32,000 nt of DNA from Massilicoli timonensis (GCF_900199515.1 NZ_LT963434.1:1652180-1684179); one strand, 5' to 3'. Counted from the first letter of the stretch, positions 2 through 20,312 are shown. Program-made: numbers and translations. The notes: generated from the sequence alone by a model not told the origin.

Positions 2-781
2 GAGCAGGCGGCAAAGCGTACCGAGGCACAGAGCGAGCGGACCCGGAAAAACGCGGCAAGCTGGCTGGATTCTGCGGTACTTGGTTCCCTGAAACGGTAT
101 GGGAATGAAGAACAAATGGAGACCTATGCAGTTCTGCGCGAGGCGTTCCTGTCAGGTAAAACCGGCTCTGTGGAGCGGATCAGCGCCTTTAAGAAGGCTG
201 TTACCGGGCGCGTGATCCCGAAAAGTGAGCGGGAAAGGCTGGAACTGTTTGAGCGGATGCTTTATGGAGTACAGGAACAGGAAACACCGCAGATTGGGCG
301 CACAGAAACCGATTACTACCGTAATTCCGTGCGGATGGGAAAAGAATGTGAAAAAGACGGCGGTTATTGGGACAGCAATGTGGAGATGACGGCCAGAGCT
401 TTTGCCTGCTACATAAAAGATAAGCTGCCCTATCAGTCGGACTATCTGGCAGGTCATGCGGATTGTGCCGTTACTCTTGTAGCTGGGAAAGACGGGAAAA
501 TGGAGGTTTTGAAAGCCTATCCCGAAGGAGCGGAACGGCAGGCGATCAATGCGGTGTTTGATGAAATTATGGCGGAGCTAAAACAGGAACAGATACTTAC
601 CCATTGGGAGACAACGCTTCCGCTTCCGGCGCAGGCCGCGCCGCTGGCTGAAAATGAGCAGATTTCCATATTTACGATGGAGCGTCCTTCGGTTATGGCG
701 CAGCTTGCAGCGGCAAAACCGGCAGAAAAAACAACGCCGGCACAGACGGTTCCGAAAAAGAGCCGTGCGCCGGAGATTTAG
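2..781 (+). CDS. 3' end of a larger conjugative-element protein (5' part upstream of the window); polyvalent-protein-like C-terminal region
   Basis: The frame is open from nt 2 with no stop, so the Met at 116 is probably internal. The motif YWDSNVEMTARAFACYIKD resembles domains I recall from large polyvalent ICE/phage proteins (unverified). The C-terminus carries RPSVMAQL plus a basic tail. Confidence 0.55.
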   Translation, partial: EQAAKRTEAQSERTRKNAASWLDSAVLGSLKRYGNEEQMETYAVLREAFLSGKTGSVERISAFKKAVTGRVIPKSERERLELFERMLYGVQEQETPQIGRTETDYYRNSVRMGKECEKDGGYWDSNVEMTARAFACYIKDKLPYQSDYLAGHADCAVTLVAGKDGKMEVLKAYPEGAERQAINAVFDEIMAELKQEQILTHWETTLPLPAQAAPLAENEQISIFTMERPSVMAQLAAAKPAEKTTPAQTVPKKSRAPEI

Positions 782-784
782 GAG

Positions 785-1615
785 GTGTTGAAAAGATTGG
801 AAGAAAATAAAGACTTCCGTGCTTACCGGTACGGCGACCATTTAGAGCCAGGGTATGAATTGAAGATTGAACACAGTATTTCTTGTGAAGATGTGGATAT
901 TTCCCCCTTTATTATGATGGGAAAAGAAAGTTTAGAGGCTATGCGTCAGGGTAGTATTGACGGGGAGCAGAAAGCCTATGAAATTGTGGTGGCAGCGGCG
1001 AAACAGTGGGAACAGCAGGCAGCTTCCACACAGATGATAGACCGGGCGCTGGAATATCTTCGCACGCCGGAGGTGGAGCATACGGGGAATGTATGGGAGA
1101 AAAGCGACGGCTGTAGGGACAGTGAGCAGATCAGCAACCGCGTGTATAAAATGTCTTGCAGCATTAAGGAAAATACCAAACATGGTCGTGAGACCGATCA
1201 GCGTATTCCGGTTGCCTGGCATGTTACATGGGATTTGTATGTGAACTCCCCAAAACAGGGATATGGCGAGAAGATTGCCGGACAAAACCAGAAACGCTAC
1301 ACCGATAAGGCTGCGGCCCTAAAGTATCTGGATGGACGCAAGAAAGCCTACGCCCATTTATTTACGGAAATCTCCCCGCAGATACCAAAACAGTATGAGC
1401 GTCATTTTACTGTGCATGGGGCGCTCCTGCCGGGATATACCGTGGAGGGCCAGGAACCGGTAAAGACAGACCGTACCGCCGCCGAAGTTTCGGAGGGCGG
1501 TATTTCTATGCTGGAAAAGCCTTCTGTGTTGGGGAAACTGGCAGCGGCAAAATCCCAGGAGAAAGCCCCCGCTGCGCCTGGGACAGCGAAAAAGAAGGAG
1601 GATATGCAGATTTGA
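785..1615 (+). CDS. Hypothetical conjugative-element protein with C-terminal KPSVLGKL motif
   Basis: 276-codon ORF right after AGGAGG (780-785). The start is ambiguous (GTG 785, TTG 788 or TTG 797). The stop overlaps the next start (TTGA, 1612-1615). No family recognised. Confidence 0.6.
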   Translation: MLKRLEENKDFRAYRYGDHLEPGYELKIEHSISCEDVDISPFIMMGKESLEAMRQGSIDGEQKAYEIVVAAAKQWEQQAASTQMIDRALEYLRTPEVEHTGNVWEKSDGCRDSEQISNRVYKMSCSIKENTKHGRETDQRIPVAWHVTWDLYVNSPKQGYGEKIAGQNQKRYTDKAAALKYLDGRKKAYAHLFTEISPQIPKQYERHFTVHGALLPGYTVEGQEPVKTDRTAAEVSEGGISMLEKPSVLGKLAAAKSQEKAPAAPGTAKKKEDMQI

Positions 1616-2031
1616 AAGTTTTAATGGTGGAACCGGGCAGATCGCCCTACGAAACGGAAATTGAGGGCGGGCTGGCCTCATTGCAGGAGGCTGTCGGCGG
1701 AGATATTCAGGCAATCTATCCCTATGAGGATATGGTTGCGCTGATCTGCAATGAGGAAGGCAAATATACAGGGCTGCCTTTGAACCGGGCGCTCTATGAT
1801 GAGGAAGGCCGTATGTATGACATTGTTGCCGGCAATTTTTTGATTGTCGGTCTGAGCGAGGAAGATTTTACTGACCTTCCTGCTGATCTGATGGAAAAAT
1901 TCAGCGAGCAGTTCAAGTACCCGGAAAAATTTGCCCGGATTGCCGGCGAGATCATCGCGGTTAAGCAGCCGGCTACAAATGAGCGGCAGGAGAAAGCCCC
2001 TAAGCCTCCCCACTCCGGACCGGAACTGTAG
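1612..2031 (+). CDS. DUF3846-like protein
   Basis: The N-terminus MKVLMVEPGRSPYETEIEGGLASLQEAVGGDIQ matches my memory of the DUF3846 family of Clostridial conjugative elements. AAGGAGGA lies at 1595-1602, and the TTG start overlaps the previous stop. Confidence 0.65.
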   Translation: MKVLMVEPGRSPYETEIEGGLASLQEAVGGDIQAIYPYEDMVALICNEEGKYTGLPLNRALYDEEGRMYDIVAGNFLIVGLSEEDFTDLPADLMEKFSEQFKYPEKFARIAGEIIAVKQPATNERQEKAPKPPHSGPEL

Positions 2032-2048
2032 GAATGGAGGGATGACCT

Positions 2049-2849
2049 ATGCTGATGGCAGTACAAGGTCCGTATGCCCTGATGGTGCAGCCGGACGATA
2101 TTTTAATCAGTCCCCGCGAGGTGGACGAGAATTTTGGAACGATGGTCTGCTTTCATCCCCGTTATGCGCTGGGTGACAGCCACAATTACATGGACAAAGA
2201 CGATTTCCTGCGGGAAATGTACTTGAATACCGTTGGGAATGACGAGCGCGGCATGAAACGGTATGAAAATATGGTAAACATGGTGTGGAGTCGGAAAATG
2301 ACCGGTCCAAATCCGGATGAACGTGCCGTTGACAATACTCTGCTGAATGTGATCTCAAAGAAGTACATCATGCTGCCGCTGTATTTGCTGGACCACAGCG
2401 GGCTTGCCATGAAAACAACCAGTTTTCACGACCCCTGGGACAGCGGGCAGGTTGGATGGATTTATGTTTCCAAAGAGGATGCCCTGAAGGAGTTTGGCGG
2501 CGAAAAAATGACCGGCGCCATCCGAAAAAAGGCGGAGGACCTTATGCGGGGCGAGGTGGCGGCTTATGATTCCTACCTCCGCGGTGAGTGCTATGGATTT
2601 GAGCTGTATAAAAACGGTGAGCTGGAGGATAGCTGCTGGGGATTCATGGGAAGTCTTGATGATGCGCGCAAGGATATGGCTGAATATCTCCCGGATAGTT
2701 GCAAGGACATGGTAGAACACCTGGAAGAACACAATCAGCCGGCTACGATTATCAAGACGCTCCTGAAACACGCAAAAATTCAGGTGGATCAGGCAGCGAA
2801 AGCCTTCGAGCACGCGCCCCGCCAGCGAATGATTGAGAACGCCAGATGA
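2049..2849 (+). CDS. Conserved hypothetical ICE protein (acidic)
   Basis: 266-codon ORF with GGAGGG 8 nt upstream of ATG 2049. Conserved-looking motifs are LLDHSGLAMK..WDSGQVGWIY and GECYGFELY..SCWGFMG. Family not identified. Confidence 0.6.
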   Translation: MLMAVQGPYALMVQPDDILISPREVDENFGTMVCFHPRYALGDSHNYMDKDDFLREMYLNTVGNDERGMKRYENMVNMVWSRKMTGPNPDERAVDNTLLNVISKKYIMLPLYLLDHSGLAMKTTSFHDPWDSGQVGWIYVSKEDALKEFGGEKMTGAIRKKAEDLMRGEVAAYDSYLRGECYGFELYKNGELEDSCWGFMGSLDDARKDMAEYLPDSCKDMVEHLEEHNQPATIIKTLLKHAKIQVDQAAKAFEHAPRQRMIENAR

Positions 2850-3334: not shown

Positions 3335-3805
3335 ATGCAGGAAGATATTGAACAAAGAACCGTTTCTGTCACTGTCCAGGCGTCAAAGCTGACCGGGCGG
3401 GTTTTGAAAGCGGCCATTGCAGCCGTGCTTCAAAAAATGGAACAGGAACGCAATACCCCAAAAGTAGGCCGCAACAGTATGAAGCGGCTGACGGCCAGGG
3501 ACCCCGGCGCGAATACCATAGAAGTGACCGGGCGGATTCGCTCTTTCGAGCGGTACGCAAGGAAACATCAGGTTCGCTATCACATTGAGAAAGAAGCTGG
3601 AACGGACCCGCCTAAGTGGACGGTTTATTTCAAGGCAAACCAGGCGGATGCTCTGACAGCGGCCTTTAAGGAATATACGAGGAAAGACCTTGCCCGCGCG
3701 CAGAGACCTTCTCTGCTGTCTCAGCTCCATAAATTCAAAGAGCTGGCGCAGGCGCTTGGCCGTGACCGTGTGAAGAACAAAGAACATGTAGGGCCGGAGC
3801 GTTGA
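3335..3805 (+). CDS. PcfB-family (DUF3801-like) conjugation accessory protein
   Basis: Sits immediately upstream of and overlapping the coupling-protein gene, as pcfB does with pcfC in pCF10-type systems. AAAGGAGG at 3321-3328 favours the second ATG (3335). The C-terminus carries RPSLLSQL. Confidence 0.65.
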   Translation: MQEDIEQRTVSVTVQASKLTGRVLKAAIAAVLQKMEQERNTPKVGRNSMKRLTARDPGANTIEVTGRIRSFERYARKHQVRYHIEKEAGTDPPKWTVYFKANQADALTAAFKEYTRKDLARAQRPSLLSQLHKFKELAQALGRDRVKNKEHVGPER

Positions 3806-5646
3806 AAATAGATACCGATACCCTGAAAAAGCAGGTGATCCTTCACTTGCCCTATCTTCTGTTTCTTTTGGTATTTGCTAAGCTGGGCGAAGCGGTACGG
3901 CTTGCCCCCGGAGCGGACGCCTCCCAAAAGCTGCTGGGTCTTTCCGAAGGCTTTACCCTTGCATTTCAGAGCATGTGGCCCGGCGCCGGAATCGACTGGC
4001 TGGTTGGTCTGTGTTGCTCGGCTGTCGTGCGGCTGGCAGTCTATCTTAAAGGGAAGGATGCGAAAAAGTACCGTAAAAATGTGGAATACGGTTCTGCCAG
4101 GTGGGGCAACAAAGCGGATATTGCCCCGTTTATGGACCCAAAGCCGGAAAACAACATTATCCTGACGCAGACCGAGGGACTTATGATGTCCGGCAGACCG
4201 AAGAATCCGGCTCACGCCCGGAATAAAAATGTGCTGGTGGTGGGCGGCTCCGGTTCCGGCAAAACGAGATTTTTCATAAAACCCAACCTCATGCAGATGC
4301 ACAGCTCCTATGTTGTCACCGATCCGAAGGGAACGGTCTTAATCGAGGTGGGAAAGCTGTTAAGCCGAGGGACCCCTAAACTGGATAAGGACGGAAAACC
4401 CGTCCGGGGCAAGAATGGAAAAATCGTGTATGAGCCTTATAAGATCAAGGTGTTCAACACAATCAATTTCTCAAAAAGTATGCACTACAACCCTTTTGCG
4501 TACATTCACAATGAGAAAGATATTCTGAAACTGGTAACGGTGCTGATTGCGAATACCAAAGGAGAAGGAAAATCTGGAGATGATTTTTGGGTCAAAGCCG
4601 AGACTTTGCTGTACACAGCATTGATCGGCTACATTTATTATGAGGCCCCCACAAATGAGCAGAATTTCTCCACTCTGGTAGAAATGATAAACGCGATGGA
4701 AGTCCGGGAGGATGACGAGAGTTTCAAAAACGCGGTTGACCTGCTCTTTGACGCACTGGAACAGAAAGACCCCGACCACTTTGCAGTCCGGCAATATAAG
4801 AAATATAAGCTGGCGGCGGGCAAAACAGCGAAAAGCATTTTGATTTCCTGCGGCGCCAGGCTTGCCCCCTTTGACATTAAAGAGGTACGGGAAATTACCA
4901 TGTATGACGAGCTGGAGCTTGACCTGGTTGGAGACAGGAAAACGGCGCTGTTCTTTATCATCAGCGATACGGACGCAACCTTTAATTTCCTTGTCAGCAT
5001 GGCCTATACACAGTTGTTCAATCTGTTGTGTGAGCGGGCCGATGACAAATACGGCGGCAGGCTGCCGGTCCATGTGCGGTGCCTGATCGATGAGGCTGCC
5101 AATATCGGCCAGATTCCCAATCTGGAAAAACTGATGGCAACCATCCGTTCAAGGGAAATATCGGCCTGTCTGGTTTTGCAGGCGCAGAGTCAGCTTAAAG
5201 CTCTGTACAAAGATAACATGGACACAATCATTGGCAACTGTGACGCCAGCCTGTTCCTCGGCGGAAAGGAAGAAACCACGCTGAAAAGCTGGAACTCACT
5301 GCTGGGAAAAGAAACCATTGATATGTACAATACCAGTGTCACGAAGGGAACCCAGGAATCCCACGGACAGAACTACCAAAAGCTGGGTAAGGATTTGATG
5401 TCCGTGGACGAGCTGGCCGTGATGGACGGCGGGAAATGTCTCCTGCAGATCAGGGGCGTCCGTCCGTTCCTCTCCCGCAAGTACGATATTACCAAGCACC
5501 CGAATTATAAATATCTGTCGGATTATAACCCTAAGAATGCCTTTGACATTGAAAAGTTTCTGTCAACAAGGCTTCCTGTCCGTCCCGGCGAGCTGTACCG
5601 CAATTATGAAATTACCGCCGAGGATTTGGCAGCGCAAACCGCATAA
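3802..5646 (+). CDS. Type IV coupling protein (VirD4/TraG/TraD family ATPase)
   Basis: 614 aa with N-terminal hydrophobic segments. Walker A is VVGGSGSGKTRF (about 4243-4266) and a Walker-B-like motif is RCLIDEAANIG. The TTG start is the first start codon after an in-frame stop at 3763. Confidence 0.9.
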   Translation: MKIDTDTLKKQVILHLPYLLFLLVFAKLGEAVRLAPGADASQKLLGLSEGFTLAFQSMWPGAGIDWLVGLCCSAVVRLAVYLKGKDAKKYRKNVEYGSARWGNKADIAPFMDPKPENNIILTQTEGLMMSGRPKNPAHARNKNVLVVGGSGSGKTRFFIKPNLMQMHSSYVVTDPKGTVLIEVGKLLSRGTPKLDKDGKPVRGKNGKIVYEPYKIKVFNTINFSKSMHYNPFAYIHNEKDILKLVTVLIANTKGEGKSGDDFWVKAETLLYTALIGYIYYEAPTNEQNFSTLVEMINAMEVREDDESFKNAVDLLFDALEQKDPDHFAVRQYKKYKLAAGKTAKSILISCGARLAPFDIKEVREITMYDELELDLVGDRKTALFFIISDTDATFNFLVSMAYTQLFNLLCERADDKYGGRLPVHVRCLIDEAANIGQIPNLEKLMATIRSREISACLVLQAQSQLKALYKDNMDTIIGNCDASLFLGGKEETTLKSWNSLLGKETIDMYNTSVTKGTQESHGQNYQKLGKDLMSVDELAVMDGGKCLLQIRGVRPFLSRKYDITKHPNYKYLSDYNPKNAFDIEKFLSTRLPVRPGELYRNYEITAEDLAAQTA

Positions 5647-5880: not shown

Positions 5881-6039
5881 ATGGCATTTTTCGCAAGTGC
5901 GATTGATACTTTGAAAATTCTGGTAATTGCCCTGGGCGCCGGCCTGGGTGCATGGGGCGTCATCAATCTGCTGGAGGGCTACGGAAATGACAATCCCGGC
6001 GCCAAATCCCAGGGCATGAAGCAGCTTATGGCTAATTAG
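5881..6039 (+). pseudogene. maff2: maff2 5' fragment, truncated by insertion of the nested element
   Basis: AAGGAGG at 5865-5871, then ATG 5881. MAFFASAIDTLKILVIALGAGLGAWGVINLLEGYGNDNPGAKSQGMKQLMA is Maff2-like. The reading frame then ends abruptly as N-stop inside inserted DNA. The missing hydrophobic C-terminus is found at 17598-17661. Confidence 0.8.
6022..6032 (+). repeat. attL core (cagctTatggc) of the nested element
   Basis: Matches cagctCatggc at 17587-17597 (10/11, or 12/14 when extended by aaN upstream). Both copies are in the maff2 reading frame (QLMA). Confidence 0.7.
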
Positions 6040-6104
6040 ATGTGATAAAAGTGGAGAAAGGAAAAGCACAATCCAGACGGAACCGGCGGCCCGGTCAAGA
6101 GATA

Positions 6105-6133
6105 TTGTGGAAACACAAGATTTCTGCTATAAT
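6105..6133 (+). promoter_or_regulatory. Sigma-A-type promoter candidate for the HTH-vat-grpB/cda-GNAT cassette
   Basis: TTGTGG (6105-6110), a 17-nt spacer, then TATAAT (6128-6133) with an upstream TGc extended -10. Confidence 0.55.
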
Positions 6134-6175
6134 GGGTGCAGAACACTTGACGATGGAAAGAGAGGCGGGACGCCT

Positions 6176-6400
6176 ATGCACATTAGCTATCAGCCATTAT
6201 GGAACACCTTGAAAGAGCGTGGCATGAGAAAGGAGGACTTGCGGCTTGCCGCCGGTCTGACAACCAACATGATTGCCAACATGGGCAAGGGCGAGCATAT
6301 CAGCATGAAAACACTTCTGCGTATCTGTGAAACCCTGCATTGTGGCATTTCGGATGTGATTGAATTGGAAGTAGATGGGGCTAATCAGAGTAAAGAATAA
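6176..6400 (+). CDS. Small XRE/Cro-type helix-turn-helix regulator
   Basis: MHISYQPLWNTLKERGMRKEDLRLAAGLTTNMIANMGKGEHISMKTLLRICETLHCGISDVIEL is a typical HTH_26-like fold pattern. The internal ATG 6176 was chosen over the listed 6107 start. Confidence 0.7.
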   Translation: MHISYQPLWNTLKERGMRKEDLRLAAGLTTNMIANMGKGEHISMKTLLRICETLHCGISDVIELEVDGANQSKE

Positions 6401-6428
6401 AACAAAGATCAATGAGGAGGTTATATAT

Positions 6429-7070
6429 ATGCAATACGGGCCAGACCCAAATGCGGTTTATCCGAATGAGGCAATTAAGAGTGTCTGCTTTATCAAAAAT
6501 ATAATTACCCGCCCTAATATTATAGTGGGTGAATATTCTTACTATGATGATATGGATGGTGCGGAGAAATTCGAGGATCATGTAACGCATCATTATGAGT
6601 TCATCGGGGATAAATTGATTATAGGTAAATTTTGTGCTATTGCTAAGGGAATAGAGTTTGTAATGAACGGTGCAAATCATCGGATGTGCAGCGTTACGAC
6701 TTATCCTTTTAATATTATGGGCGGTGGCTGGGAACAGTTTACTCCGGCTTTAGAGGACTTGCCGCTAAAGGGTGACACTGTTGTTGGAAATGATGTTTGG
6801 ATTGGGCAGAATGTTACTGTAATGCCGGGTGTGAATATCGGAGATGGTGCAATTATAGCCGCAAATTCTGTCGTAACAAAAGACATTCCCGCCTATTGTG
6901 TCGCTGGTGGAAATCCTTGCAAAATAATAAAAAAACGCTTTGACGATGAACTCATCTCGTACTTGCAAGAGATAAAATGGTGGGACTGGTCACCAGAAAA
7001 AATATTCGCAAATCTTGAGGCGTTATGTAGCGGAGATTTGGAACAGATACGCAACATAATTGAGGTGTAA
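6429..7070 (+). CDS. vat: Vat-family streptogramin A O-acetyltransferase (xenobiotic acetyltransferase, hexapeptide repeat)
   Basis: GAGGAGG precedes ATG 6429. The 213-aa product has GEYSYYD, KIGKFCAI, MNGANHRM, YPFN, GDTVVGNDVWIGQNVTVMPGVNIGDGAIIAANSVV and KWWDW. It is colinear with VatD/SatA as I remember it. Confidence 0.9.
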   Translation: MQYGPDPNAVYPNEAIKSVCFIKNIITRPNIIVGEYSYYDDMDGAEKFEDHVTHHYEFIGDKLIIGKFCAIAKGIEFVMNGANHRMCSVTTYPFNIMGGGWEQFTPALEDLPLKGDTVVGNDVWIGQNVTVMPGVNIGDGAIIAANSVVTKDIPAYCVAGGNPCKIIKKRFDDELISYLQEIKWWDWSPEKIFANLEALCSGDLEQIRNIIEV

Positions 7071-7106
7071 TTTTGTTGGAATTGATGTTTTAGAGGTGGG
7101 AAATAA

Positions 7107-8006: not shown

Positions 8007-8018
8007 AGAAGCACGGAT

Positions 8019-8471
8019 ATGAATGAATATAGTTATGTCACATTAAGACAAGTACCAGAATTAAAAGAACCCGCCGCTGCATGGTTTCATGCCAAATGGG
8101 GCGTACCGCAAGAAGCCTATCTTGAATGTATGGAAGCCTATTTGAAAAATAAAACGGAATACGGCTGGTATTTTTGCTTAGACGGCAGGCGTATTATAGG
8201 CGGTCTGGGCGTAATAGATAATGATTTTCACGATAGAAAAGACCTTTCGCCAAATGTATGTGCATTATATACGGAAGAGGATTATCGCTGTCAAGGAATT
8301 GCAGGGCAGTTACTTGATACGGTTGTGAAAGATATGAAATCCAAAGGAATTACTCCTATTTATTTGATTACAGACCATACAAGTTTTTATGAAAGATATG
8401 GCTGGGAATTTTTATGTATGGTTCAGGGGGATGATGAGCCGGACATGACAAGAATGTACATTCACAGATAA
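8019..8471 (+). CDS. GNAT-family N-acetyltransferase (substrate unknown)
   Basis: 150 aa. The acetyl-CoA-binding motif-A-like stretch is RCQGIAGQLLDTVVKDMKSKG, with C-terminal FYERYGWEF. Confidence 0.75.
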   Translation: MNEYSYVTLRQVPELKEPAAAWFHAKWGVPQEAYLECMEAYLKNKTEYGWYFCLDGRRIIGGLGVIDNDFHDRKDLSPNVCALYTEEDYRCQGIAGQLLDTVVKDMKSKGITPIYLITDHTSFYERYGWEFLCMVQGDDEPDMTRMYIHR

Positions 8472-11225: not shown

Positions 11226-11227
11226 TT

Positions 11228-11783: not shown

Positions 11784-13373
11784 ATGCCCTGTCCCCACCA
11801 TGATATAAAAATTGTCCAGCGCAGCAACCGCCAGTCAGCCGTAGCCGCCGCAGCTTACCAGAGCGGCGAACGGCTGTTTTCCGAGTACGACCAGAAGCAG
11901 AAATACTATTCCGAGAAACGAGGGATCGTCCACACAGAAATCATGCTGCCGCCCCACGCCCCGCCGGAGTACGCAGACCGCAACACATTGTGGAACGCCG
12001 CCGAAGCCATAGAAAAACAATGGAACTCCCAGCTTGCCCGGAGGATCGTGCTTGCCATACCGAGGGAAATTCCCCCGGAAAAACACGCCGACCTGATTCG
12101 GGATTATTGCCGGGAGTTTTTCGTTTCCAAAGGCATGATTGCCGATTTTGCCATTCACGATAAGGGGGACGGGAATCCCCACGCCCACATCCTGCTGACC
12201 ATGCGGGCAATGGACGAAATCGGGAAATGGCTTCCCAAGAGCCGGAAGGTTTATGACCTTGACGAGAACGGCGAGCGTATCCGGCTCCCGTCCGGAAACT
12301 GGAAAAGCCACAAGGAGGACACCGTAGACTGGAACGACCAGAAGTATGGCGAGATATGGCGGCAGGGCTGGGCGGCTGTCGCTAACCGCTATCTGGAAGC
12401 CAATGACCGCCCGGAGCGCCTTGACCTTCGTTCCTATGAACGGCAGGGGCTTGATAAAATCCCCACCGTCCACATGGGGCCAGCGGTCAGCCAGATGGAG
12501 AAACGAGGGATACAGACCAACATCGGCAACCTGAACCGGGATATTACCGCCGCCAACCGGCTCATGCAGTCCATCCGTCAGATGGTGCGCCACCTGAAAG
12601 GCTGGATTGCAGACCTGAAGGAGAAAAAGGCCGCCCTGCTGGAAGCCTTGCAGGAAGCGAAGGAACCCACCCTGCCGGAACTGCTGGGCAAATATCTGGA
12701 TTTGCGTCGGGAGGAACGCACTGGCTGGACAAGCAAAGGCCAGCTCAAAGGCACTGTGAACGACTTCAACAAGGTTATGGACGCTATCCGCTATCTGCGG
12801 GAAAAGGAGCTGTCCACCGTGGAGAGTTTGGATGCCTATCTGGATACCGTCAGCGGGCAGGCCGTTTCCATCCGGGCGGAGATGAAGCCGAAGGAAAAGC
12901 GCATGAAGGAGATCGACACCCTGCTTTCCCATATCGCCAACTTTGAAGCCCATAAGCCGGTTCATGCGGAATATGCCGCCATCCGGTTTAAGAAGCCAAA
13001 GGAACAGTTTGCCGCCGCCCATCGGGACGAGCTGGACGCCTACAATGCCGCTGTCCGCTATTTCAAGGTGCATTTGGAGGGAACCAAGTATAGCACCAAA
13101 AAGCTGAACGAGGAACGGACGCAGCTTGCCGGAGAGGTGGCCGAGTACGGGGAACGCCTGTCAGCGGTGCAGGAGGATGTGAAAATTCTCCGGGATGTGC
13201 GCCACTGGCTTAATCAGGTGCTTCCGTCCGAGCAGTACCGCCAGACTGCCGAGCCGGGCAAGAAACCGTCTATCCAGCAGGCAGTCAAAGGCCGGGCGCA
13301 GCGTATCCGGGAGGAACAGGCCGAGAAACGCCAGCAGCCCCGCACAGAGAAAAAACAGGATATGGAACTTTAA
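11784..13373 (+). CDS. MobA/MobL-family (MOBQ-type) relaxase
   Basis: AAAGGAGGA RBS. The N-terminus has IVQRSNRQSAVAAAAYQSGERL (catalytic Tyr codon 11856-11858) and the His motif DGNPHAHILLTMR. The C-terminal half is a long coiled coil. Confidence 0.9.
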   Translation: MPCPHHDIKIVQRSNRQSAVAAAAYQSGERLFSEYDQKQKYYSEKRGIVHTEIMLPPHAPPEYADRNTLWNAAEAIEKQWNSQLARRIVLAIPREIPPEKHADLIRDYCREFFVSKGMIADFAIHDKGDGNPHAHILLTMRAMDEIGKWLPKSRKVYDLDENGERIRLPSGNWKSHKEDTVDWNDQKYGEIWRQGWAAVANRYLEANDRPERLDLRSYERQGLDKIPTVHMGPAVSQMEKRGIQTNIGNLNRDITAANRLMQSIRQMVRHLKGWIADLKEKKAALLEALQEAKEPTLPELLGKYLDLRREERTGWTSKGQLKGTVNDFNKVMDAIRYLREKELSTVESLDAYLDTVSGQAVSIRAEMKPKEKRMKEIDTLLSHIANFEAHKPVHAEYAAIRFKKPKEQFAAAHRDELDAYNAAVRYFKVHLEGTKYSTKKLNEERTQLAGEVAEYGERLSAVQEDVKILRDVRHWLNQVLPSEQYRQTAEPGKKPSIQQAVKGRAQRIREEQAEKRQQPRTEKKQDMEL

Positions 13374-13436
13374 CAGGCGCTTGCCATTTTCTTTTTGAGA
13401 ATGACAGGCGCTTTTCTTATTTTCAGGAGGATTTAG

Positions 13437-14072
13437 TTGAATGTATTTGAAGCTGTCAAGCAGTCTGTTACCACCCGGCAGGCTGCCGAGCATTTCGGAA
13501 TCCGGGTGGGACGGAACGGGATGTGCGTCTGTCCCTTCCATGCCGACAATAACCCAAGTATGAAGGTTGACCGGCGCTTTCACTGTTTCGGCTGTCAGGC
13601 CGACGGGGATGTAATCGACTTTGTTTCCCGTCTGGAAGCTGTCAGCCCCAAGGAAGCTGCCCTTATGCTGGCGCAGGCGTTTTCCATCCCCTATGAGGAC
13701 AAGGAGCCGCCCCGCCACAGGAAGCCCCGGCAGGAACCCCCGGAACAGCGGTTCCGCCGTATGGAACGGTACTGCTTCCGGGTGCTATGCGACTATCGAA
13801 ACCTGCTGCGCCGCTGGAAACGGGACTATGCCCCCAACACACCAGACGAGGATTTCCACCCTTTGTTTGTGGAAGCCCTGCAAAAGCAGGACTATGTGGA
13901 CTATCTGCTGGATGTGCTTCTCTCCCCTGACATGGAGGAACGGGCAGCCTTTATCATCGACTGTGGAAAGGAAGTGAGCAATCTTGAAAGACGAATGGCA
14001 GAGCTTGCCGCCGGAGATACGGCAGGCCGCAGAACAGACCATGCAAGAAGCACCGCCGCCCCGGAGCGTTGA
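13437..14072 (+). CDS. CHC2 zinc-finger (DnaG-primase N-terminal-like) protein
   Basis: AGGAGGA at 13425-13431, then TTG 13437. CVCPFHADNNPSMKVDRRFHCFGCQADGDVIDFV is the CHC2 zinc-finger signature. No TOPRIM domain is evident in the 211 aa. Confidence 0.8.
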   Translation: MNVFEAVKQSVTTRQAAEHFGIRVGRNGMCVCPFHADNNPSMKVDRRFHCFGCQADGDVIDFVSRLEAVSPKEAALMLAQAFSIPYEDKEPPRHRKPRQEPPEQRFRRMERYCFRVLCDYRNLLRRWKRDYAPNTPDEDFHPLFVEALQKQDYVDYLLDVLLSPDMEERAAFIIDCGKEVSNLERRMAELAAGDTAGRRTDHARSTAAPER

Positions 14073-14085
14073 GGAAGTCAAAGCC

Positions 14086-15378
14086 ATGCTGGAAAGCACC
14101 GAGAAAGGGGGCGTCCGCAACAGTATCCGAAACTGCCTGACCGTCTTTCAGAATGATCCGCTGCTTTCCGGGGCAATCGCCAAAAACCTCTTGACCGAGC
14201 GCACCGACATCATCAAGCCCATCGGCTACCACCGTACCGGCACCGCCATCACGGACACGGATATGAATTATCTGCTTCTGTATCTGGAAGAAACTTATGG
14301 GCTGACCAGCGAAAAGAAGATTGCCGCAGCCATCGGGATCGTTGCCAACGAAAACGGCTATCACCCCATCCGTGACTACCTGAACGGCCTTTCATGGGAC
14401 GGAACCGAGCGTATCCGTACCTGCCTGCACCACTTTTTAGGAGCCGACAGCGACCAGTACACCTATGAAGCCCTGCGGCTGTTCCTGCTGGGAGCCATCC
14501 ACCGGGCATTTCATCCCGGCTGCAAATTTGAAGTCATGCTTTGTCTGGTGGGCGGTCAGGGAGCCGGGAAATCCACCTTTTTCCGGCTGCTGGCCGTGAA
14601 AGACGAGTGGTTTTCCGATGACCTTCGCAAGCTGGACGATGACAATGTGTACCGCAAGCTGCAAGGCCACTGGATCATTGAGATGTCGGAGATGATCGCC
14701 ACCGCAAACGCCAAGAGCATTGAGGAAATCAAGTCTTTTTTGAGCCGACAGAAGGAGGTCTATAAAATCCCATACGAAACCCACCCGGAGGACAGGCTGC
14801 GGCAATGCGTGTTCGGCGGCACTTCCAATGCCCTGGACTTTCTGCCCCTTGACCGTTCCGGCAACCGGCGCTTTCTGCCGGTCATGGTGTACCCGGAACA
14901 GGCGGAAGTTCACATTTTGGACGATGAAGCCGCTTCCAGAGCCTACATGGAGCAGCTATGGGCGGAAGCCATGACCATTTACCGCAGCGGGGATTTTAAG
15001 CTGTCTTTCAGCCCCGAAATGGTGCGCTATCTCAAAGAACACCAGCGGGATTTCATGCCGGAGGACACCAAGGCTGGGATGATCCAAGCCTACCTTGACC
15101 GCTATACCGGCAGTATGGTGTGTTCCAAACAGCTTTTCCGGGAAGCCCTGAACCACCCCTTTGACGAGCCGAAACAATGGGAAATCCGGGAGGTCAACGA
15201 CATTATGAACCATTGTGTCACAGGCTGGCACTACTTTTCCAATCCCCGGATGTTCCCGGAATACGGCAGGCAGAAGGGCTGGGAGAGTGAAACCCCGGCA
15301 ACGGACACCAGCAACGGAGCCGAAAAAATCCCGGAGGGATTTGTGGAGGTCACAGAACAGATGGAGCTTCCTTTCTGA
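14086..15378 (+). CDS. VirE-family (virulence-associated protein E) P-loop NTPase, primase/helicase-associated
   Basis: Walker A is LVGGQGAGKSTFFRLL and Walker-B-like is HWIIEMSEM. The start is uncertain: the ORF opens at 13984, ATG 14041 is possible, and ATG 14086 is preferred because GAGGAAG lies 8 nt upstream. Confidence 0.8.
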   Translation: MLESTEKGGVRNSIRNCLTVFQNDPLLSGAIAKNLLTERTDIIKPIGYHRTGTAITDTDMNYLLLYLEETYGLTSEKKIAAAIGIVANENGYHPIRDYLNGLSWDGTERIRTCLHHFLGADSDQYTYEALRLFLLGAIHRAFHPGCKFEVMLCLVGGQGAGKSTFFRLLAVKDEWFSDDLRKLDDDNVYRKLQGHWIIEMSEMIATANAKSIEEIKSFLSRQKEVYKIPYETHPEDRLRQCVFGGTSNALDFLPLDRSGNRRFLPVMVYPEQAEVHILDDEAASRAYMEQLWAEAMTIYRSGDFKLSFSPEMVRYLKEHQRDFMPEDTKAGMIQAYLDRYTGSMVCSKQLFREALNHPFDEPKQWEIREVNDIMNHCVTGWHYFSNPRMFPEYGRQKGWESETPATDTSNGAEKIPEGFVEVTEQMELPF

Positions 15379-15390
15379 AAATCCTACCCC

Positions 15391-15595
15391 GTTGCCGACT
15401 TTGTTGCACGCCTGTTGCCGGGCTGGTTGCCGGGGAAAGCCCCGTAACTGCAGGCTTTTCCCCCTATCAGCAACCAAAGCAACAGAAAAATAAAAGAAAA
15501 TATAAATTGTAACCAAACCGCCAGACAGAGAAGGTTTTGAGGTTTTTTGAAGCCCGTTGCCGGACTTCGTTGCCGACCTTCTCCTTGTCTGGCTA
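15391..15595 (+). repeat. Iteron cluster + AT-rich tract + long inverted repeat (origin-of-replication-like region)
   Basis: GTTGCCG occurs at 15391, 15414, 15426, 15556 and 15569, with the variant GTTGCAC at 15403. Spacing in the first block is 11-12 bp. Inverted GCAAC lies at 15470 and 15479. The A/T-rich tract is about 15484-15515. The inverted repeat is gccagacagagaaggt (15520-15535) against accttctccttgtctggc (15576-15593). Confidence 0.6.
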
Positions 15596-15619
15596 TTCTA
15601 TTATGGAGGATAACTGCCT

Positions 15620-15817
15620 ATGGCAAAAACGAAAACAGAGATTCATGTTACCACAGTTTTTGACGGCGAGCTGGACGCAGCGGATGTCTTTGTGAGCCTG
15701 ATTGCCCAAAAATATGGGCAGAATACCGGTAAGGAAAATCTTGCGAAAACGCAAGATTTAGGATATAATAAAGACGAGGTTCAGAAGAACCGTGTTCCGT
15801 CTGGATTGTGCGGGTAA
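15620..15817 (+). CDS. Small hypothetical protein upstream of the serine recombinase (possible recombination directionality factor)
   Basis: GGAGGA lies 9 nt upstream of ATG 15620. The ORF is 65 codons and ends 6 nt before the recombinase start. No family recognised. Confidence 0.45.
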   Translation: MAKTKTEIHVTTVFDGELDAADVFVSLIAQKYGQNTGKENLAKTQDLGYNKDEVQKNRVPSGLCG

Positions 15818-15823
15818 ACGGTT

Positions 15824-17488
15824 ATGATGAACGGATACGACTACACAGGCATGGACGCAATTCTGGCGGGCAGCTTCCGGGCGGCCATCTATTGCAGGCT
15901 TTCCAAAGACGATGACCTTGACGGGGAGAGCGCCAGTATTGCCAACCAGCGGGATATGCTGGAAAGCTACTGCGAAAAGCAGGGATGGGAGGTTGTGGCA
16001 GTCTATCAGGATGATGGCTACACGGGGCTGAACATGGAGCGCCCCGACCTGAAACGGATGTTAAAGGCCATCGAGCGCAGGCAGATAAACCTTGTGATAA
16101 CGAAAGATTTATCGAGATTGGGTCGAAATTACTTGCAAACCGGCACACTGATCGAGGACTTCTTCCCCCGTCACGGCGTCCGCTATATCGCCATGAATGA
16201 CGGTATCGACACCATGCGGGACAACAACGACATTGCGCCGTTCAAGAACATCCTGAACGAGATGTACAGCAAGGATATTTCAAAGAAGGTACATTCCTCG
16301 TATCTTCTGAAAGCCCAGCAAGGCCAGTTTACCGGCTGTGTGGCTCCCTTTGGGTATCGGAAAGACCCGGAGGACAAAAACCACCTGTTGGTGGACGAGG
16401 AAACCGCCCCCATTGTCCGGCAAATCTTCCTTTGGGCGCTGGAAGGACACGGCCCCAACTTCATCCGGCGCAGGCTGGAAGAACAGAAAGTGCCTTGCCC
16501 TACATGGTGGAACCGGGAACGGGGCTTCCGCAATGTCCGCACCAAATGGGAAAAGAAAGACCCGGAAAACGGGCGGTATATGTGGGATTTCTCCGTGATA
16601 AAGGACATCCTGATGAATCCCGTTTATACCGGGGCGATAGCTTCCCAAAAGAAGGACTACCGCTTCAAAATCGGCACCATTGGGGAGAAGAAGCCGCAGG
16701 ACTGGATTGTGGTGGAGGAACGGCACGAACCGTTGATTGACAGCAAAAGTTTTGCCATCGTGCAGGACAAGCTAAAATCCCGCCAGCGCCCCCGGCAGGA
16801 CGGGGAAACCAGCCTGTTTGCCGGGCTTATCAAGTGCGGCGAATGTGGTAAGTCGCTGACCATCCGCACCACCCACGCCAAGCACCCGCAGCAGATTTAC
16901 GCCTGTAAGACCTATGGGGCGTTCGGCAAGAACCATTGCACCCAGCACCGGGTGGAGTACGACACCCTTTACCACCTTGTCCTGAACAAAATCCGGGAGT
17001 GCGCCAAGGCTGCCCTGACCGATGGGGAAGCCATTGCCGGGAAGCTGACCAACACCTGCGAAGCCGAACAGAAAGGCCAGCGGGAAGCGTTGGAGCGTTC
17101 CCTGACAAAAGACGAGGAACGGATTGAGGTGCTGGAAAAGATGGTGCTGCGGCTCTATGAGGACATGGTTGCCGGGCGGATCAGCGAAGCCAACTTCAAT
17201 CTCATGCTGGACAAAACGCAGAAAGAACAGGCCGAGTTGAAAGAGCGGGTTGCACAGGGGCGCAAGAAGCTGGCTGATGAAATGCGGCTGGCGATGGACG
17301 CCAAACAATGGGTGGACGCCATTCAGGAATATGCCGACATCACGGAGCTGGACGCAGCCATCCTAAACCGCCTGATTAAAGAAATCGTTGTCCATGAACA
17401 CATCGACAGCGATAAGACACGACACATTTCTATCGAAATTCACTTCAATCTCAAACCCATCCCGGAGGTGGAACAGGTCAAGGGCTGA
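15824..17488 (+). CDS. Large serine recombinase (resolvase/invertase N-terminal domain + recombinase domain + zinc ribbon + coiled coil)
   Basis: AAIYCRLSKDDD carries the catalytic Ser codon at 15902-15904. Further motifs are SIANQRDMLESYC, DLSRLGRNY and the zinc ribbon CGECGKSL..YACKTYGAFGKNHC. The 554-aa product is the last gene before the right junction. Confidence 0.92.
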   Translation: MMNGYDYTGMDAILAGSFRAAIYCRLSKDDDLDGESASIANQRDMLESYCEKQGWEVVAVYQDDGYTGLNMERPDLKRMLKAIERRQINLVITKDLSRLGRNYLQTGTLIEDFFPRHGVRYIAMNDGIDTMRDNNDIAPFKNILNEMYSKDISKKVHSSYLLKAQQGQFTGCVAPFGYRKDPEDKNHLLVDEETAPIVRQIFLWALEGHGPNFIRRRLEEQKVPCPTWWNRERGFRNVRTKWEKKDPENGRYMWDFSVIKDILMNPVYTGAIASQKKDYRFKIGTIGEKKPQDWIVVEERHEPLIDSKSFAIVQDKLKSRQRPRQDGETSLFAGLIKCGECGKSLTIRTTHAKHPQQIYACKTYGAFGKNHCTQHRVEYDTLYHLVLNKIRECAKAALTDGEAIAGKLTNTCEAEQKGQREALERSLTKDEERIEVLEKMVLRLYEDMVAGRISEANFNLMLDKTQKEQAELKERVAQGRKKLADEMRLAMDAKQWVDAIQEYADITELDAAILNRLIKEIVVHEHIDSDKTRHISIEIHFNLKPIPEVEQVKG

Positions 17489-17586
17489 CCTGTCCACGCC
17501 GGAGCGGTTCTAAAACAATTCCATATATTTTTTGACACGCCGCCGCCCGCCATCGAGCAAGGTTTTACTCCTATTTAGGGATAAAA

Positions 17587-17667: not shown

Positions 17668-18531
17668 ATGGGCAGTCTGTTTGAATGGATAACAGACTGG
17701 ATTAAAGAGGGCTTAATTGAAGCGATTACAGGACAATATACCGGTATTTTTGAGTCGGTCAACAACCAGGTTTCGGATGTGGCTTCGCAGGTAGGCCAGA
17801 CGCCGCAGGGGTGGAATGGCGGCGTGTTCAGTATGATCCAGAATCTTTCTGAAACCGTCGTCATTCCCATTGCGGGAATCATCCTGACATTTGTGCTGGT
17901 CTATGAGCTGATTCAGATGATTCTTGAAAAAAACAACATGCACGATTTTGATACCTTCAACATTTTCAAGTGGATTTTCAAGACCTTTGTTGCCACATAT
18001 CTGCTTACCAACTGTTTCACTATCGTTATGGCGGTATTCGATGTCGCCCAAAATGTGGTAAGTCAGAGCGCCGGCGTGATAAACGGAAGTCTGGATGTCA
18101 CCGCTGCGCTGTCTGATCTGGAAACGCAGCTTGAAGCAATGGGAATGTGGGAGCTGATCGGTCTGTGGCTGGAAACCAATATCATTAACCTGTGCATGTG
18201 GGTATTGTCTATTGTAATCTTTGTCATTGTGTATGGCCGTATGATTGAAATATATCTCACGGTCAGCCTGGCACCCATACCGTTTTCCACGATGGCAAAC
18301 CGTGAATGGGGGCAGATGGGAACCAATTACCTGCGTTCCCTGTTTGCTTTAGGTTTTCAGGGCTTTTTGATTCTGGTCTGTGTTGCGATTTACGCGGTGC
18401 TGGTCCAGTCAATCCCTTCTTCCGGCGATATTCACGGAGCAATCTGGGGTACGGCGGGCTATACGGTCCTGCTGGCCTTTGCCCTGTTTAAGACAGGCTC
18501 GCTATCCAAAAGTATATTTAACTCGCATTAG
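17668..18531 (+). CDS. VirB6/TrbL-like polytopic T4SS membrane protein (CD1112-type)
   Basis: 287 aa with about 6 hydrophobic segments. It sits immediately after maff2, as in related Firmicutes ICEs. The family call rests on context and topology. Confidence 0.7.
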   Translation: MGSLFEWITDWIKEGLIEAITGQYTGIFESVNNQVSDVASQVGQTPQGWNGGVFSMIQNLSETVVIPIAGIILTFVLVYELIQMILEKNNMHDFDTFNIFKWIFKTFVATYLLTNCFTIVMAVFDVAQNVVSQSAGVINGSLDVTAALSDLETQLEAMGMWELIGLWLETNIINLCMWVLSIVIFVIVYGRMIEIYLTVSLAPIPFSTMANREWGQMGTNYLRSLFALGFQGFLILVCVAIYAVLVQSIPSSGDIHGAIWGTAGYTVLLAFALFKTGSLSKSIFNSH

Positions 18532-18572
18532 TGCGTAACCAATCTATATTTTCGACAAGGAGGATTTTTCAT

Positions 18573-19025
18573 ATGAGTAAAACCAACAATGAAACCATGC
18601 AGCCGGAGGTACAGGTGCCGGAGGCGTCCGAGGGCCTGAAGCTGGATGTCCGTGTGCGTCCTATCGCGCCGATGGGGAACCTGCTGGCCTTTGCCAATGT
18701 GACAATCGGCGGGTGTTTTAAGATCGACGGCTTCCGTATCTGTTCCGGTGAAAAGGGGCTGTATGTCAATATGCCTTCCACCCAGGACGGGAAAGGGAAC
18801 TGGAAAGATGTGTGCTGGCCTGTAACGGCGGATTTCCGCAGACAGCTCAACGATGCGCTGATTGAAGGGTACGGCCAGGCGATTGAAAATTTGCAGGCCA
18901 CGCTTGAAGCGACCAAAGGCGCCGCGGACAGACCTTCGCTGTCCGGTGCGCTCAAAGAAAATGCCGGGAAAGTGAAAGCTCAGCCGGCGAAAGCCGCACC
19001 TGCAAAAAATGAGCAGGCCCGTTGA
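18573..19025 (+). CDS. SpoVG-family nucleic-acid-binding protein with extra C-terminal tail
   Basis: AAGGAGG precedes ATG 18573. LDVRVRPIAPMGNLLAFANVTIGGCFKIDGFRICSGEKGLYVNMPSTQDGKGNWKDVCWPV is colinear with SpoVG. An extra approx. 50-aa tail contains RPSLSGAL. Confidence 0.8.
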   Translation: MSKTNNETMQPEVQVPEASEGLKLDVRVRPIAPMGNLLAFANVTIGGCFKIDGFRICSGEKGLYVNMPSTQDGKGNWKDVCWPVTADFRRQLNDALIEGYGQAIENLQATLEATKGAADRPSLSGALKENAGKVKAQPAKAAPAKNEQAR

Positions 19026-19582
19026 TGCAGGAGCAGAAAAAATATGGCATCGTGTATGCGGACCCACCCTGGCGTTATGATATGAAACGCGGAAACGGTG
19101 TTGCCGAAAAGCATTATCCCACTATGAGCATTGAGGAAATATGCGCACTGCCGGTTGCAGAACTTGCGGCCAAAGACAGTGCGCTTTTTCTATGGGCTAC
19201 CTTCCCGCAGCTTAACGAGGCGTTCCGTGTGATGGAGGCATGGGGATTTAAGTATAAGACGCTGGCCTTTTTGTGGCTGAAACAGAACCGGAAAGCAGAT
19301 TCCTGGTTTTATGGAATGGGCTTCTGGACGCGGAGCAATGCCGAGGTATGTCTTTTGGCGATACGGGGGCATCCCAAACGCCAGTGTGCGGGAATCCATC
19401 AGTTTGTCATTTCCCACATTGAACAGCACAGCAAGAAACCGGACGAGGTACGGGATAAGATCGTAAAGCTCATGGGCGACCAGCCCAGGGTGGAACTCTT
19501 TGCGAGGCAGCAGACCCCCGGCTGGGATGTATGGGGAAATGAAGTGGAATGTACGGCCATGATGCCGAAACGGAAGGAGTGA
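19025..19582 (+). CDS. MT-A70-family N6-adenine DNA methyltransferase (orphan)
   Basis: The DPPW catalytic motif is at 19061-19072 (YGIVYADPPWRY), followed by FLWAT, GFWTRSNAEVCLLAIRG and HSKKPDEV. The start overlaps the SpoVG-like stop (TGATG). No cognate nuclease gene is nearby. Confidence 0.85.
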   Translation: MQEQKKYGIVYADPPWRYDMKRGNGVAEKHYPTMSIEEICALPVAELAAKDSALFLWATFPQLNEAFRVMEAWGFKYKTLAFLWLKQNRKADSWFYGMGFWTRSNAEVCLLAIRGHPKRQCAGIHQFVISHIEQHSKKPDEVRDKIVKLMGDQPRVELFARQQTPGWDVWGNEVECTAMMPKRKE

Positions 19583-19586
19583 CCGA

Positions 19587-20312
19587 ATGGAACAGGACGC
19601 AAAAAGATTGCTGTTAAAACGGCTGGATGTTTGCCTGAAAGTCCATGCGGATATGCTGGATGCGGATAATATCGGCGCCATTTATGAATTGCAGGACTTG
19701 GCGGAGCTCCATTATTACCTGAAGGTGGAGCATGAATTCACACCTGCGGAGGTGGAGGCGCTTCTGGAATTTCAGGACCCTTTGGATGTGGCGCGCTGGT
19801 GTAAGGAAGATAACACACATACGCACAGCTTTCCAATCTGTGAACTGTTGAAAGAAATCAATGCGTATGAGCGATTCACAAAGGCAGACCCGGTACCGTC
19901 ATTTTCCGATAAGTATGCCGAGCTGATGCGGGCATTGACAAAAAACCTCTACGCCTACCGGGAAGAATTGATGTCCTGTGATAAACAGGCCATACTCGGC
20001 AGGACCGAAGAAACCGCCGCGGTCATGGCTGCTTACCGCTATATGCAGGATATGTGTTCCCCGAATGAGAAAGAGGTGGATTACCTTCTTCGTTATGATA
20101 ATCCGCTGAAACTGATTGCGGATCATTGGCCGGACAGTGCGGTTACTTCCGGGGAGGCGGTTCTTTGCGGCGTGATGGAAGAAATAGATTCACCGCCGGA
20201 GGAACGGGCACAGTCGCTAAAGTCTATCCGGGAACGGCTGCAACATGCGGCCAAAGAGGTAAAAGATCGTCCGGCTTCAGAAAAAGCGAACCGCAGCGCC
20301 GATATACGCTGA
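19587..20312 (+). CDS. Hypothetical ICE protein (possibly DUF3848/3849-like)
   Basis: AAGGAG lies 7 nt upstream of ATG 19587. The ORF is 241 codons. The family call is tentative, from memory of LLEFQDPLDV-type sequences in Clostridial elements. Confidence 0.55.
   Translation: MEQDAKRLLLKRLDVCLKVHADMLDADNIGAIYELQDLAELHYYLKVEHEFTPAEVEALLEFQDPLDVARWCKEDNTHTHSFPICELLKEINAYERFTKADPVPSFSDKYAELMRALTKNLYAYREELMSCDKQAILGRTEETAAVMAAYRYMQDMCSPNEKEVDYLLRYDNPLKLIADHWPDSAVTSGEAVLCGVMEEIDSPPEERAQSLKSIRERLQHAAKEVKDRPASEKANRSADIR

Follow-up and report, generated by a model that had tools for sequence, protein, structure and literature searches.

A portable two-part C-terminal module on unrelated proteins of a Tn1549-family conjugative element, a candidate signal for docking to the VirD4-type coupling protein

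The DNA analysed is a stretch of 32,000 nucleotides (nt) from Massilicoli timonensis (GCF_900199515.1, NZ_LT963434.1:1652180-1684179; one strand, positions counted from its first letter), called the window here, and it is the conjugation module of a Tn1549-family integrative and conjugative element (ICE), as seen from Pfam and NCBIfam matches and from gene order. The short motif [RK]PS[VIL]xxx[LV], found near the ends of several otherwise unrelated proteins of this element, is the front half of a portable two-part C-terminal module of about 30-36 residues. The module may serve as a signal for docking to the VirD4-type coupling protein of the element, probably followed by translocation; the probability of this reading, which is drawn from sequence comparison, is put at about one half.

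The module and its carriers in the window

In family-balanced form, the consensus front of the module reads (K/E)(K/R)-P-S-(V/I/L)-x3-L-x3-(K/A), the middle is a spacer of varying sequence with much Lys, Ala, Pro, and Gln, and the end reads K-K-K-(E)-(E/D)-x-(E/S)-(L/R)-COOH, or in summary K-K-x-E-x-x-[L/I/R]-COOH. The motif serine is placed 27-35 residues from the C-terminal end, mostly 30-31, and the basic cluster K-K-K occupies positions -8 to -6 of the consensus. Eight proteins of the window are carriers (Table 1): five with a strict motif, two with a degenerate full tail (19587-20312; 2049-2849), and one with an end-only remnant (1612-2031). The last 32 residues have a net charge of +3 to +4 in all seven full-tail carriers.

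An earlier note, made from the DNA of the window, had named the five strict peptides and a looser one, KSIRERL; all six are encoded in frame, with 23-28 residues between each motif and the stop codon as it had said, and its protein labels hold (LPD1 polyvalent protein, DUF3801/PcfB, SpoVG, MobA_MobL/MobQ relaxase), the protein that it had left as hypothetical being LPD34. Missed at that time were the terminal element, which is a basic patch followed by [E/D/Q]-x-[L/I/R]-COOH, together with the degenerate copy and the remnant upstream of pcfB. The identical 12-mer to which the note had drawn attention, GCAGCGGCAAAA, is present behind the first two motifs (707-718 and 1541-1552); these two neighbouring tails are about 54% identical as DNA, so that conservation lies at the protein level and the shared 12-mer is a minor detail.

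A chance origin of the window motifs is excluded. The window proteins, 9,400 residues in all, contain the strict motif five times; 5,000 per-protein shuffles gave a mean of 0.073 and a maximum of 2. All five copies lie 31-36 residues from the C-terminus (p about 3e-9 if positions were uniform). A six-frame scan returned 10 strict matches, five in real genes and five in non-coding frames. The same signal was recovered without bias toward any motif when, element by element, the C-terminal 42 residues of every protein were compared with each other; top scores were 67 in the window, 59, 57, and 51 in Tn1549, 63, 42, and 41 in the related locus L009, and 58 and 56 in the L. paracasei plasmid pVHProbi_F22, with N-terminal and mid-protein controls at 38 or below. 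As a positive control, this comparison recovers the LPXTG signals of a pheromone plasmid.

Individual carriers differ in how the module is joined to the rest of the protein. The Pfam match of LPD34 spans residues 10-222, which places the tail outside the domain, and in the SpoVG-like protein the match takes up residues 38-115 of 164, with the tail added behind the domain; the likely start of the latter protein is the ATG at 18573, giving 150 residues, the length also called for the gene in the related locus L081. PcfB matches PF12687 with 94.6 bits (cut-off 24.1) over profile positions 2-131 of 131, and the DUF3801 model therefore includes the tail. The LPD1 protein extends past the left edge of the window and has about 675 residues in related loci. 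In the window the DUF3846 protein is a short form, and the long DUF3846+YodL form of related loci (367-370 residues) has the full tail RDVSLREQLDDAKKQAAKAEPKTPEKKKEPERS. Orthologues of the 266-residue protein have the motif variants APSVIQTL and MPSMVQTL. Once the second conserved element is taken into account, the DUF3848-like protein counts as a regular member with Pro replaced; the L081 copy matches the tail profile described below with an independent E-value (iE) of 5e-6.

The tail as such has no Pfam or NCBIfam model of its own. Pfam scans of whole carriers and of isolated tails gave a tail-region match for the PcfB tail alone (DUF3801), and the tail is buried inside the DUF3801 and DUF6674 models. 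DUF4316, tried as a Pfam model of the tail, was rejected, being a different motif that comes after YodL.

The Pro-Ser pair probably caps a short helix with aliphatic residues at i and i+4. An AlphaFold 2 model of PcfB, made from a shallow alignment and of low confidence (mean predicted local distance difference test score 60.5), shows a break in the helix at RPS, then helix again over residues 129-145 and disorder at the end, which is weak support for the helix cap. Foldseek comparison of this model with the PDB gave no match at E below 0.03, with weak KH/ACT-like resemblances only, and a PDB sequence search with PcfB found nothing.

Within-family conservation was taken from homologue searches with the relaxase and PcfB, in which the listed relatives have at least 74% identity. 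In 100 relaxase homologues (74-98% identity) the helix motif PS-phi-x3-phi, as PS[IV]xxx[VLI], and the terminal KQDMEL are kept (motif examples KPSVQESL, KPSINEQL, and QPSIQEEI), and the spacer between them drifts. Two elements, the helix motif and the terminal residues, are thus under selection.

Distribution among related and more distant elements

Eighty related loci (L001 and following) from many Clostridia genera were fetched via the coupling protein (type IV coupling protein, T4CP; identity 66-98%). Among all open reading frames (ORFs) of at least 60 residues in these loci, the strict motif is found 135 times, and in 106 of these it starts 30-34 residues from the C-terminus. Greedy calling gave 1,604 genes, in which a zone that makes up 4.4% of positions has 90 strict motifs and all other positions together have six, namely an N-terminal motif of topoisomerase III, two antisense ORFs, and one singleton. 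As a control, 119 housekeeping genes of Pusillibacter faecalis pMM59_01, a Clostridia replicon (30,349 residues), contain no strict motif and, at the threshold set for reporting, no match to the tail profile; on the profile side this control is weak, because the same run missed the strict-motif PcfB in the ICE segment of that replicon.

The tail profile was built family-balanced from 32 tails of 8 families and used at iE<0.01. Of its 114 matches, 112 end at most 6 residues from the C-terminus, and in the remaining two the distance is 7 residues. With reversed sequences there were 0 matches.

At least nine unrelated families carry the tail, and structural parts do not. Counted in loose form, it is present in 58/58 PcfB and 18/19 LPD34 proteins; tail-bearing members make up 13/13 of the LPD1 polyvalent proteins (all by profile, 12 with the strict motif), 7/7 SpoVG-like, 6/6 DUF3848-like, 14/16 of the 266-residue family, 8/19 long DUF3846+YodL, 4/4 DUF6674, and, with a tail-like end, 6/6 MobQ relaxases. 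Weaker cases are DUF5688, DUF4314, and two unnamed families. The module is kept throughout the ICE family, Tn1549 included. The tail is absent from the T4CP (0/74 family members) and from the VirB6, PrgI, VirB4, hydrolase, CD1107, DUF4315, and Maff2 families, and the downstream cargo AbiEii, Thy1, dUTPase, and YpsA has no tail.

The terminal residues vary between elements. In the subclade L009, L010, L012, and L015 the LPD1, LPD34, and SpoVG-like proteins all end in EQSL; in the subclade of the window (window, L001-L008) the orthologous ends are APEI, DMQ[IL], and EQAR, respectively. This difference hints that the terminal residues of one element change in concert.

In Tn1549 itself, examined as the copy on pMG2200, the tail is RPSIRKVL...ERGLEL on PcfB and RPSIRKQL...KKNELEV on a 314-residue protein; a 1,306-residue ArdA/ArdC-N/M78/LPD25/YodL polyvalent protein has KPSIRAQL...SKGLEVE once, at the extreme C-terminus and not between domains. 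Farther away, in two systems whose coupling protein is of the same family, other motifs are found at the same distance from the stop codon (Table 1). In L. paracasei pVHProbi_F22 (T4CP 41% identical), PcfB, an ArdC-like protein, and a DUF3991 primase-like protein bear TL[DQ]xKI-x2-AK at 31-34 residues from the stop; in a pCF10-like E. faecalis plasmid (T4CP 34% identical), PcfB and a 1,618-residue LPD1 protein bear FEE[KR]LA. Neither TL[DQ]xKI nor FEE[KR]LA has any other occurrence in the six frames of its locus.

Wider searches added little. An exhaustive profile search with the seven window tails gave 27 significant matches, 25 of them ending exactly at the C-terminus; it is silent on wider spread, because the 16 matches fetched are close relatives or chimeric fragments of window families. 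Comparison of the tail alignment with an index of 5.8 billion proteins gave 84 candidates and was uninformative, the query being too short for the word index. LPD34 copies filed as viral, intended as a tail-less phage control, are 71-82% identical over the full length with the tail included; the control was dropped, and these copies are probably misfiled ICEs.

A proposed role and its alternatives

The carriers are soluble, non-structural proteins, among them PcfB, LPD1, LPD34, DUF3846-YodL, ArdA/ArdC polyvalent, SpoVG-like, DUF3848-like, and DUF6674 proteins, and relaxases of nested integrative and mobilisable elements (IMEs). Classes known or predicted to travel with DNA are among them, namely relaxases, ArdA/ArdC polyvalent proteins, and the primase-like DUF3991 protein. 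ArdC and primases are transferred in Gram-negative systems. Polyvalent-protein domains have been predicted to enter recipients (PMC5512222).

In the proposed mechanism, the CD1115-family VirD4-type coupling protein would recognise the C-terminal module as a recruitment tag, tagged proteins would dock at the channel, and they would then probably be exported to the recipient together with the DNA. The coupling protein encoded beside pcfB is the obvious candidate, and presumed, receptor. Element-specific variants common to unrelated proteins would be expected if the tags co-adapt to one receptor.

The IME relaxase would, under the same mechanism, borrow the coupling protein of the host ICE through the same tag. 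The IME lies in an insertion behind maff2 and consists of a MobQ relaxase, a primase zinc-finger protein, VapE, and a serine recombinase (15824-17488), with no coupling protein among the encoded genes. Its relaxase ends in ...EKKQDMEL, and the stop codon is followed by non-coding DNA; the tail is the version of the host ICE (KKQDMEL, compared with the LPD34 end KKKEDMQI). A hijack of the coupling protein of the host ICE via the tail is plausible. As a separate observation, the primase zinc-finger protein (13437-14072) ends in ...RSTAAPER, which resembles the terminal element (GPER/APEI), without a helix motif.

Several points weigh against recruitment and export. PcfB, which bears the tail most constantly, is not among the known substrates and could be an adaptor rather than cargo. 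The MOBP7 relaxases, both that of Tn1549 and those of IMEs, bear only a partial tail (...TVKRNIDQIL...RRKEQSHER). The 80 loci belong to one ICE family, so shared ancestry accounts for much of the conservation; what counts as independent is the protein families, about 9-14 of them, and not the 114 matches, and to these are added three lineages with their own variants. Both variant patterns, TL[DQ]xKI and FEE[KR]LA, were defined post hoc, after the data had been seen. Several other plasmids with the same coupling-protein family yielded no common tail on tail-vs-tail comparison: pSK41, L. plantarum pL11478-1, E. faecalis pKUB3006-4, and the plasmids of L. garvieae, Clostridioides sp., C. sporogenes, and B. 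thuringiensis, the last with one acidic low-complexity pair at a score of 49. The PcfB model is of low confidence. Finally, the codons for the last few residues of some tails overlap the ribosome-binding site that serves the following gene, as in LPD34, where AAGAAGGAGGAT encodes KKED.

This last overlap does not explain the tail, because behind the end of the relaxase there is only non-coding DNA; on the same ground, the view that the terminal motif is nothing but an overlap artefact was rejected. In two other carriers the downstream ribosome-binding site lies 3' of the stop codon.

The B. thuringiensis pair consists of an ArdC-family protein and a 410-residue protein (L092 10634-11866, 20109-21992), both with an acidic end ...EKE..EELEL(ER); this may be another shared end or mere composition.

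Among the alternatives, a docking motif that acts in the donor and involves no export survives best, although it is judged unlikely; the partner would be a scaffold of the relaxosome or 'transferosome', PcfB, or the coupling protein as an assembly platform. The distribution data fit it as well as they fit export, PcfB is always tailed and is translationally coupled to the coupling protein (the pcfB stop codon overlaps the start of the coupling-protein gene), and according to reviews relaxosome-T4CP recognition in Gram-positive systems has little experimental support. It accounts less well for carriers with ArdA, ArdC-N, and other polyvalent domains, whose predicted site of action is the recipient, and a scaffold in the donor has no obvious need for a tag fixed at the C-terminus.

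A nucleic-acid-binding tail of the histone H1 kind, rich in Lys, Ala, and Pro and tethering its protein to the transferred strand or to element DNA with no recognition by the coupling protein, is considered quite improbable. It would suit the composition of the spacer (AAAKPAEK, KAQPAKAAPAK), the net charge of +3 to +4, and the many DNA-related carriers (relaxase, SpoVG, ArdC-like, primase-like); yet it is the spacer that is least conserved, with selection on P-S-phi-x3-L and the last residues, and a generic DNA-binding tail needs neither a fixed C-terminal distance nor element-specific helix motifs.

There is little to recommend a degradation or stability tag, read by a host protease (ClpXP, Lon) and keeping potentially harmful proteins low in the donor. 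Known ClpX tags are C-terminal, and the tail shares this anchoring and keeps its final residue within one class (L, I, or R), but it has no similarity to the LAA-COOH type, its variants differ between elements that share host clades, and no clear reason exists to mark transfer-essential relaxases and PcfB for degradation.

Close to refuted is the absence of any shared function, with low-complexity composition and overlapping ribosome-binding sites and start codons of a packed operon as the source of the likeness: the overlap in some ends speaks for it, but shuffles, reversed sequences, and mid-protein and N-terminal controls are all negative, the relaxase tail abuts non-coding DNA, and about 90 nt separate the helix motif from any start codon downstream of it.

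The earlier note's suggestion that the motif is a recruitment or translocation signal of the T4SS (type IV secretion system) is thus plausible and agrees with all computational tests, but it is strengthened only, because docking without transfer or DNA binding would fit the same data.

The surrounding element and known C-terminal signals

The assignment to the Tn1549 family rests on the set and order pcfB - CD1115-type virD4 - maff2 - CD1112 virB6 - prgI - CD1110 virB4 - hydrolase - DUF4315 - CD1107. The same backbone has been described for Tn1549-family ICEs (PMC12084326). In full, the gene order is LPD1, LPD34, DUF3846, 266-residue protein, PcfB, VirD4, Maff2, the insertion, and then VirB6, SpoVG-like, MT-A70, DUF3848-like, PrgI, VirB4, PAPS-reductase-like, M23/NlpC hydrolase, DUF4315, CD1107-like, and adhesin; the MOBP7 relaxase of the ICE itself lies outside the window. 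The tail-bearing SpoVG-like and DUF3848-like genes are interspersed with channel genes (17668..23167, plus strand).

Table 1 Carriers of the C-terminal module and other features. Positions are those of the window, except for the last two rows, which give positions in loci L087 and L088.
Feature	Position	Strand	Family evidence	Motif, tail, or remark
Polyvalent-type protein, LPD1, C-terminal 259 residues	2..781	+	Pfam LPD1, E=4.6e-21	RPSVMAQL 683-706; tail 683-778 RPSVMAQLAAAKPAEKTTPAQTVPKKSRAPEI
LPD34 protein, 276 residues	785..1615	+	Pfam LPD34, E=1e-91	KPSVLGKL 1517-1540; tail 1517-1612 KPSVLGKLAAAKSQEKAPAAPGTAKKKEDMQI
DUF3846 protein, short form, 139 residues	1612..2031	+		terminal element only, ...QEKAPKPPHSGPEL (...HSGPEL)
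266-residue protein	2049..2849	+	no Pfam family	degenerate tail ~2736-2846 QPATIIKTLLKHAKIQVDQAAKAFEHAPRQRMIENAR (QPATIIKTL...IENAR); tail-profile iE=1.4e-6
PcfB-like protein (DUF3801), 158 residues	3329..3805	+	Pfam DUF3801, E=6e-27	RPSLLSQL 3704-3727; tail 3704-3802 RPSLLSQLHKFKELAQALGRDRVKNKEHVGPER
VirD4-type coupling protein, CD1115 family	3802..5646	+	Pfam T4SS-DNA_transf and TraG-D_C; NCBIfam conju_CD1115, E=1e-163	
MobQ (MobA_MobL) IME relaxase, 529 residues	11784..13373	+	Pfam/NCBIfam	KPSIQQAV 13263-13286; tail 13263-13370 KPSIQQAVKGRAQRIREEQAEKRQQPRTEKKQDMEL
VirB6/TrbL	17668-18531	+	Pfam	tail-free internal control
SpoVG-like protein	18531..19025	+	Pfam SpoVG	RPSLSGAL 18930-18953; tail 18930-19022 RPSLSGALKENAGKVKAQPAKAAPAKNEQAR
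MT-A70 methylase	19022-19582	+		among channel genes; without tail
241-residue protein	19587..20312	+	weak DUF3848 similarity	KSIRERL 20220-20240; degenerate tail 20217-20309, Pro replaced, LKSIRERLQHAAKEVKDRPASEKANRSADIR
PrgI	20341-20790	+	Pfam	tail-free internal control
VirB4	20666-23167	+	Pfam	tail-free internal control
Variant tails, L087 (pVHProbi_F22)	19726, 30911, 35541			30-36 residues before stop codon
Variant tails, L088 (pCF10-like)	18242, 27124			30-36 residues before stop codon

The interval between virD4 (or maff2) and virB6 is occupied by MobQ or MOBP7 elements in the window (9700-17500) and in L005, L024, L028, L029, L031, and L061, with a serine recombinase gene abutting virB6 where the downstream end lies in the locus (window, L024, L031); it looks like a recurrent integration hot spot for IMEs. 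At window positions 6000-9000 the G+C content is 38-44%, against 51-56% elsewhere, and three small ORFs are found there (6375-7070, 7107-8006, 8019-8471); these low-GC ORFs, at about 6-9 kb of the window and part of the insertion, are probably cargo. The coupling-protein gene itself is interrupted by an insertion in Blautia producta DSM 2950 (L016 10001-11470, 13942-14406) and in P. faecalis pMM59_01 (L115 18241-28483), in the latter case with a MobQ relaxase ending in ...QKKEELSR. Group II intron reverse transcriptases are located in or beside the conjugation genes of several related ICEs (L002 16309-18141; L082 1-1100; L055).

The surface-protein ORF behind the CD1107-like gene (28247-30910) has 887 residues in the window and 1,634 residues in L081 (11215-16119), a contig that encodes a CD1107-like protein identical to that of the window; the window copy may be truncated or interrupted. 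An ORF of 288 residues follows 3' of it on the minus strand (30879-31745).

Tn1549-family ICEs spread vanB vancomycin resistance and are among the commonest conjugative elements of gut Firmicutes. If the recruitment reading is true, the tag would define the set of proteins injected by these ICEs (anti-restriction, polyvalent, PcfB, and SpoVG-like proteins) and would decide which IMEs a given ICE can mobilise. A tag that can be recognised in sequence would allow one to predict the proteins sent ahead of, or with, the DNA, and it might be put to use in reporter fusions, to deliver proteins into gut anaerobes, or to block transfer. Experimental evidence on substrate choice by Gram-positive T4SSs is limited (2025 review, PMC12857230). 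No published description of the tail was found in a literature search made without most subscription journals, and a paper on polyvalent proteins, one on Faecalibacterium ICEs, and a recent T4SS review are silent on it. Tentatively, the module could be the first sequence-defined recognition or translocation signal of a Gram-positive conjugative T4SS, a variant C-terminal tag read by CD1115-type VirD4 proteins that would define injected proteins and mobilisable IMEs.

As a kind, the tail would belong with the C-terminal signals of T4SSs. Close in form are the signals of the Agrobacterium VirB/VirD4 substrates (VirE2, VirE3, and VirF), for which a positively charged C-terminal signal is the rule (Vergunst et al. 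2005, in PMC8406263). Both are short, unstructured, net-positive extreme C-termini on unrelated proteins, those of Agrobacterium being exported through VirD4 by one conjugation-type T4SS; the tail described here lacks R-x7-R-x-R-x-R, adds a P-S-capped helix motif at a fixed distance of 27-35 residues from the end, and belongs to a Gram-positive host.

XVIPCD of the Xanthomonas T4SS toxins (PMC8740702) is likewise a conserved C-terminal module on unrelated substrates and is read by the coupling protein, but it is a folded domain of about 120 residues, whereas the tail has about 32 mostly disordered residues, and no carrier has a Pfam match to such a domain. In F and R1, VirD4 recruits the relaxase as well as accessory or maintenance proteins, which thereby reach the recipient, and F-type T4SSs export ParA, ParB, SSB, and PsiB through VirD4 (PMC8406263); unlike the tail, the TSA and TSB signals of TraI are internal folded domains, and the protein substrates of the F plasmid have no known common short motif.

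Sortase LPXTG signals are also C-terminal tags on unrelated proteins of Gram-positive mobile elements, detected by the same tail-vs-tail comparison; they include a hydrophobic segment and mark Sec-exported surface proteins, whereas the tail is found on cytoplasmic proteins and has neither LPXTG nor a hydrophobic stretch, and the true LPXTG tails of L088 look different. In type VII secretion, a C-terminal YxxxD/E helix signal is read by the FtsK-like ATPase EccC. The likeness lies in a short helical motif near the substrate C-terminus, which in type VII, in Gram-positive-type envelopes, is read by an FtsK/VirD4-like hexameric ATPase; the difference lies in the motif, the secretion system, and the substrate fold (WXG100 helical hairpins).

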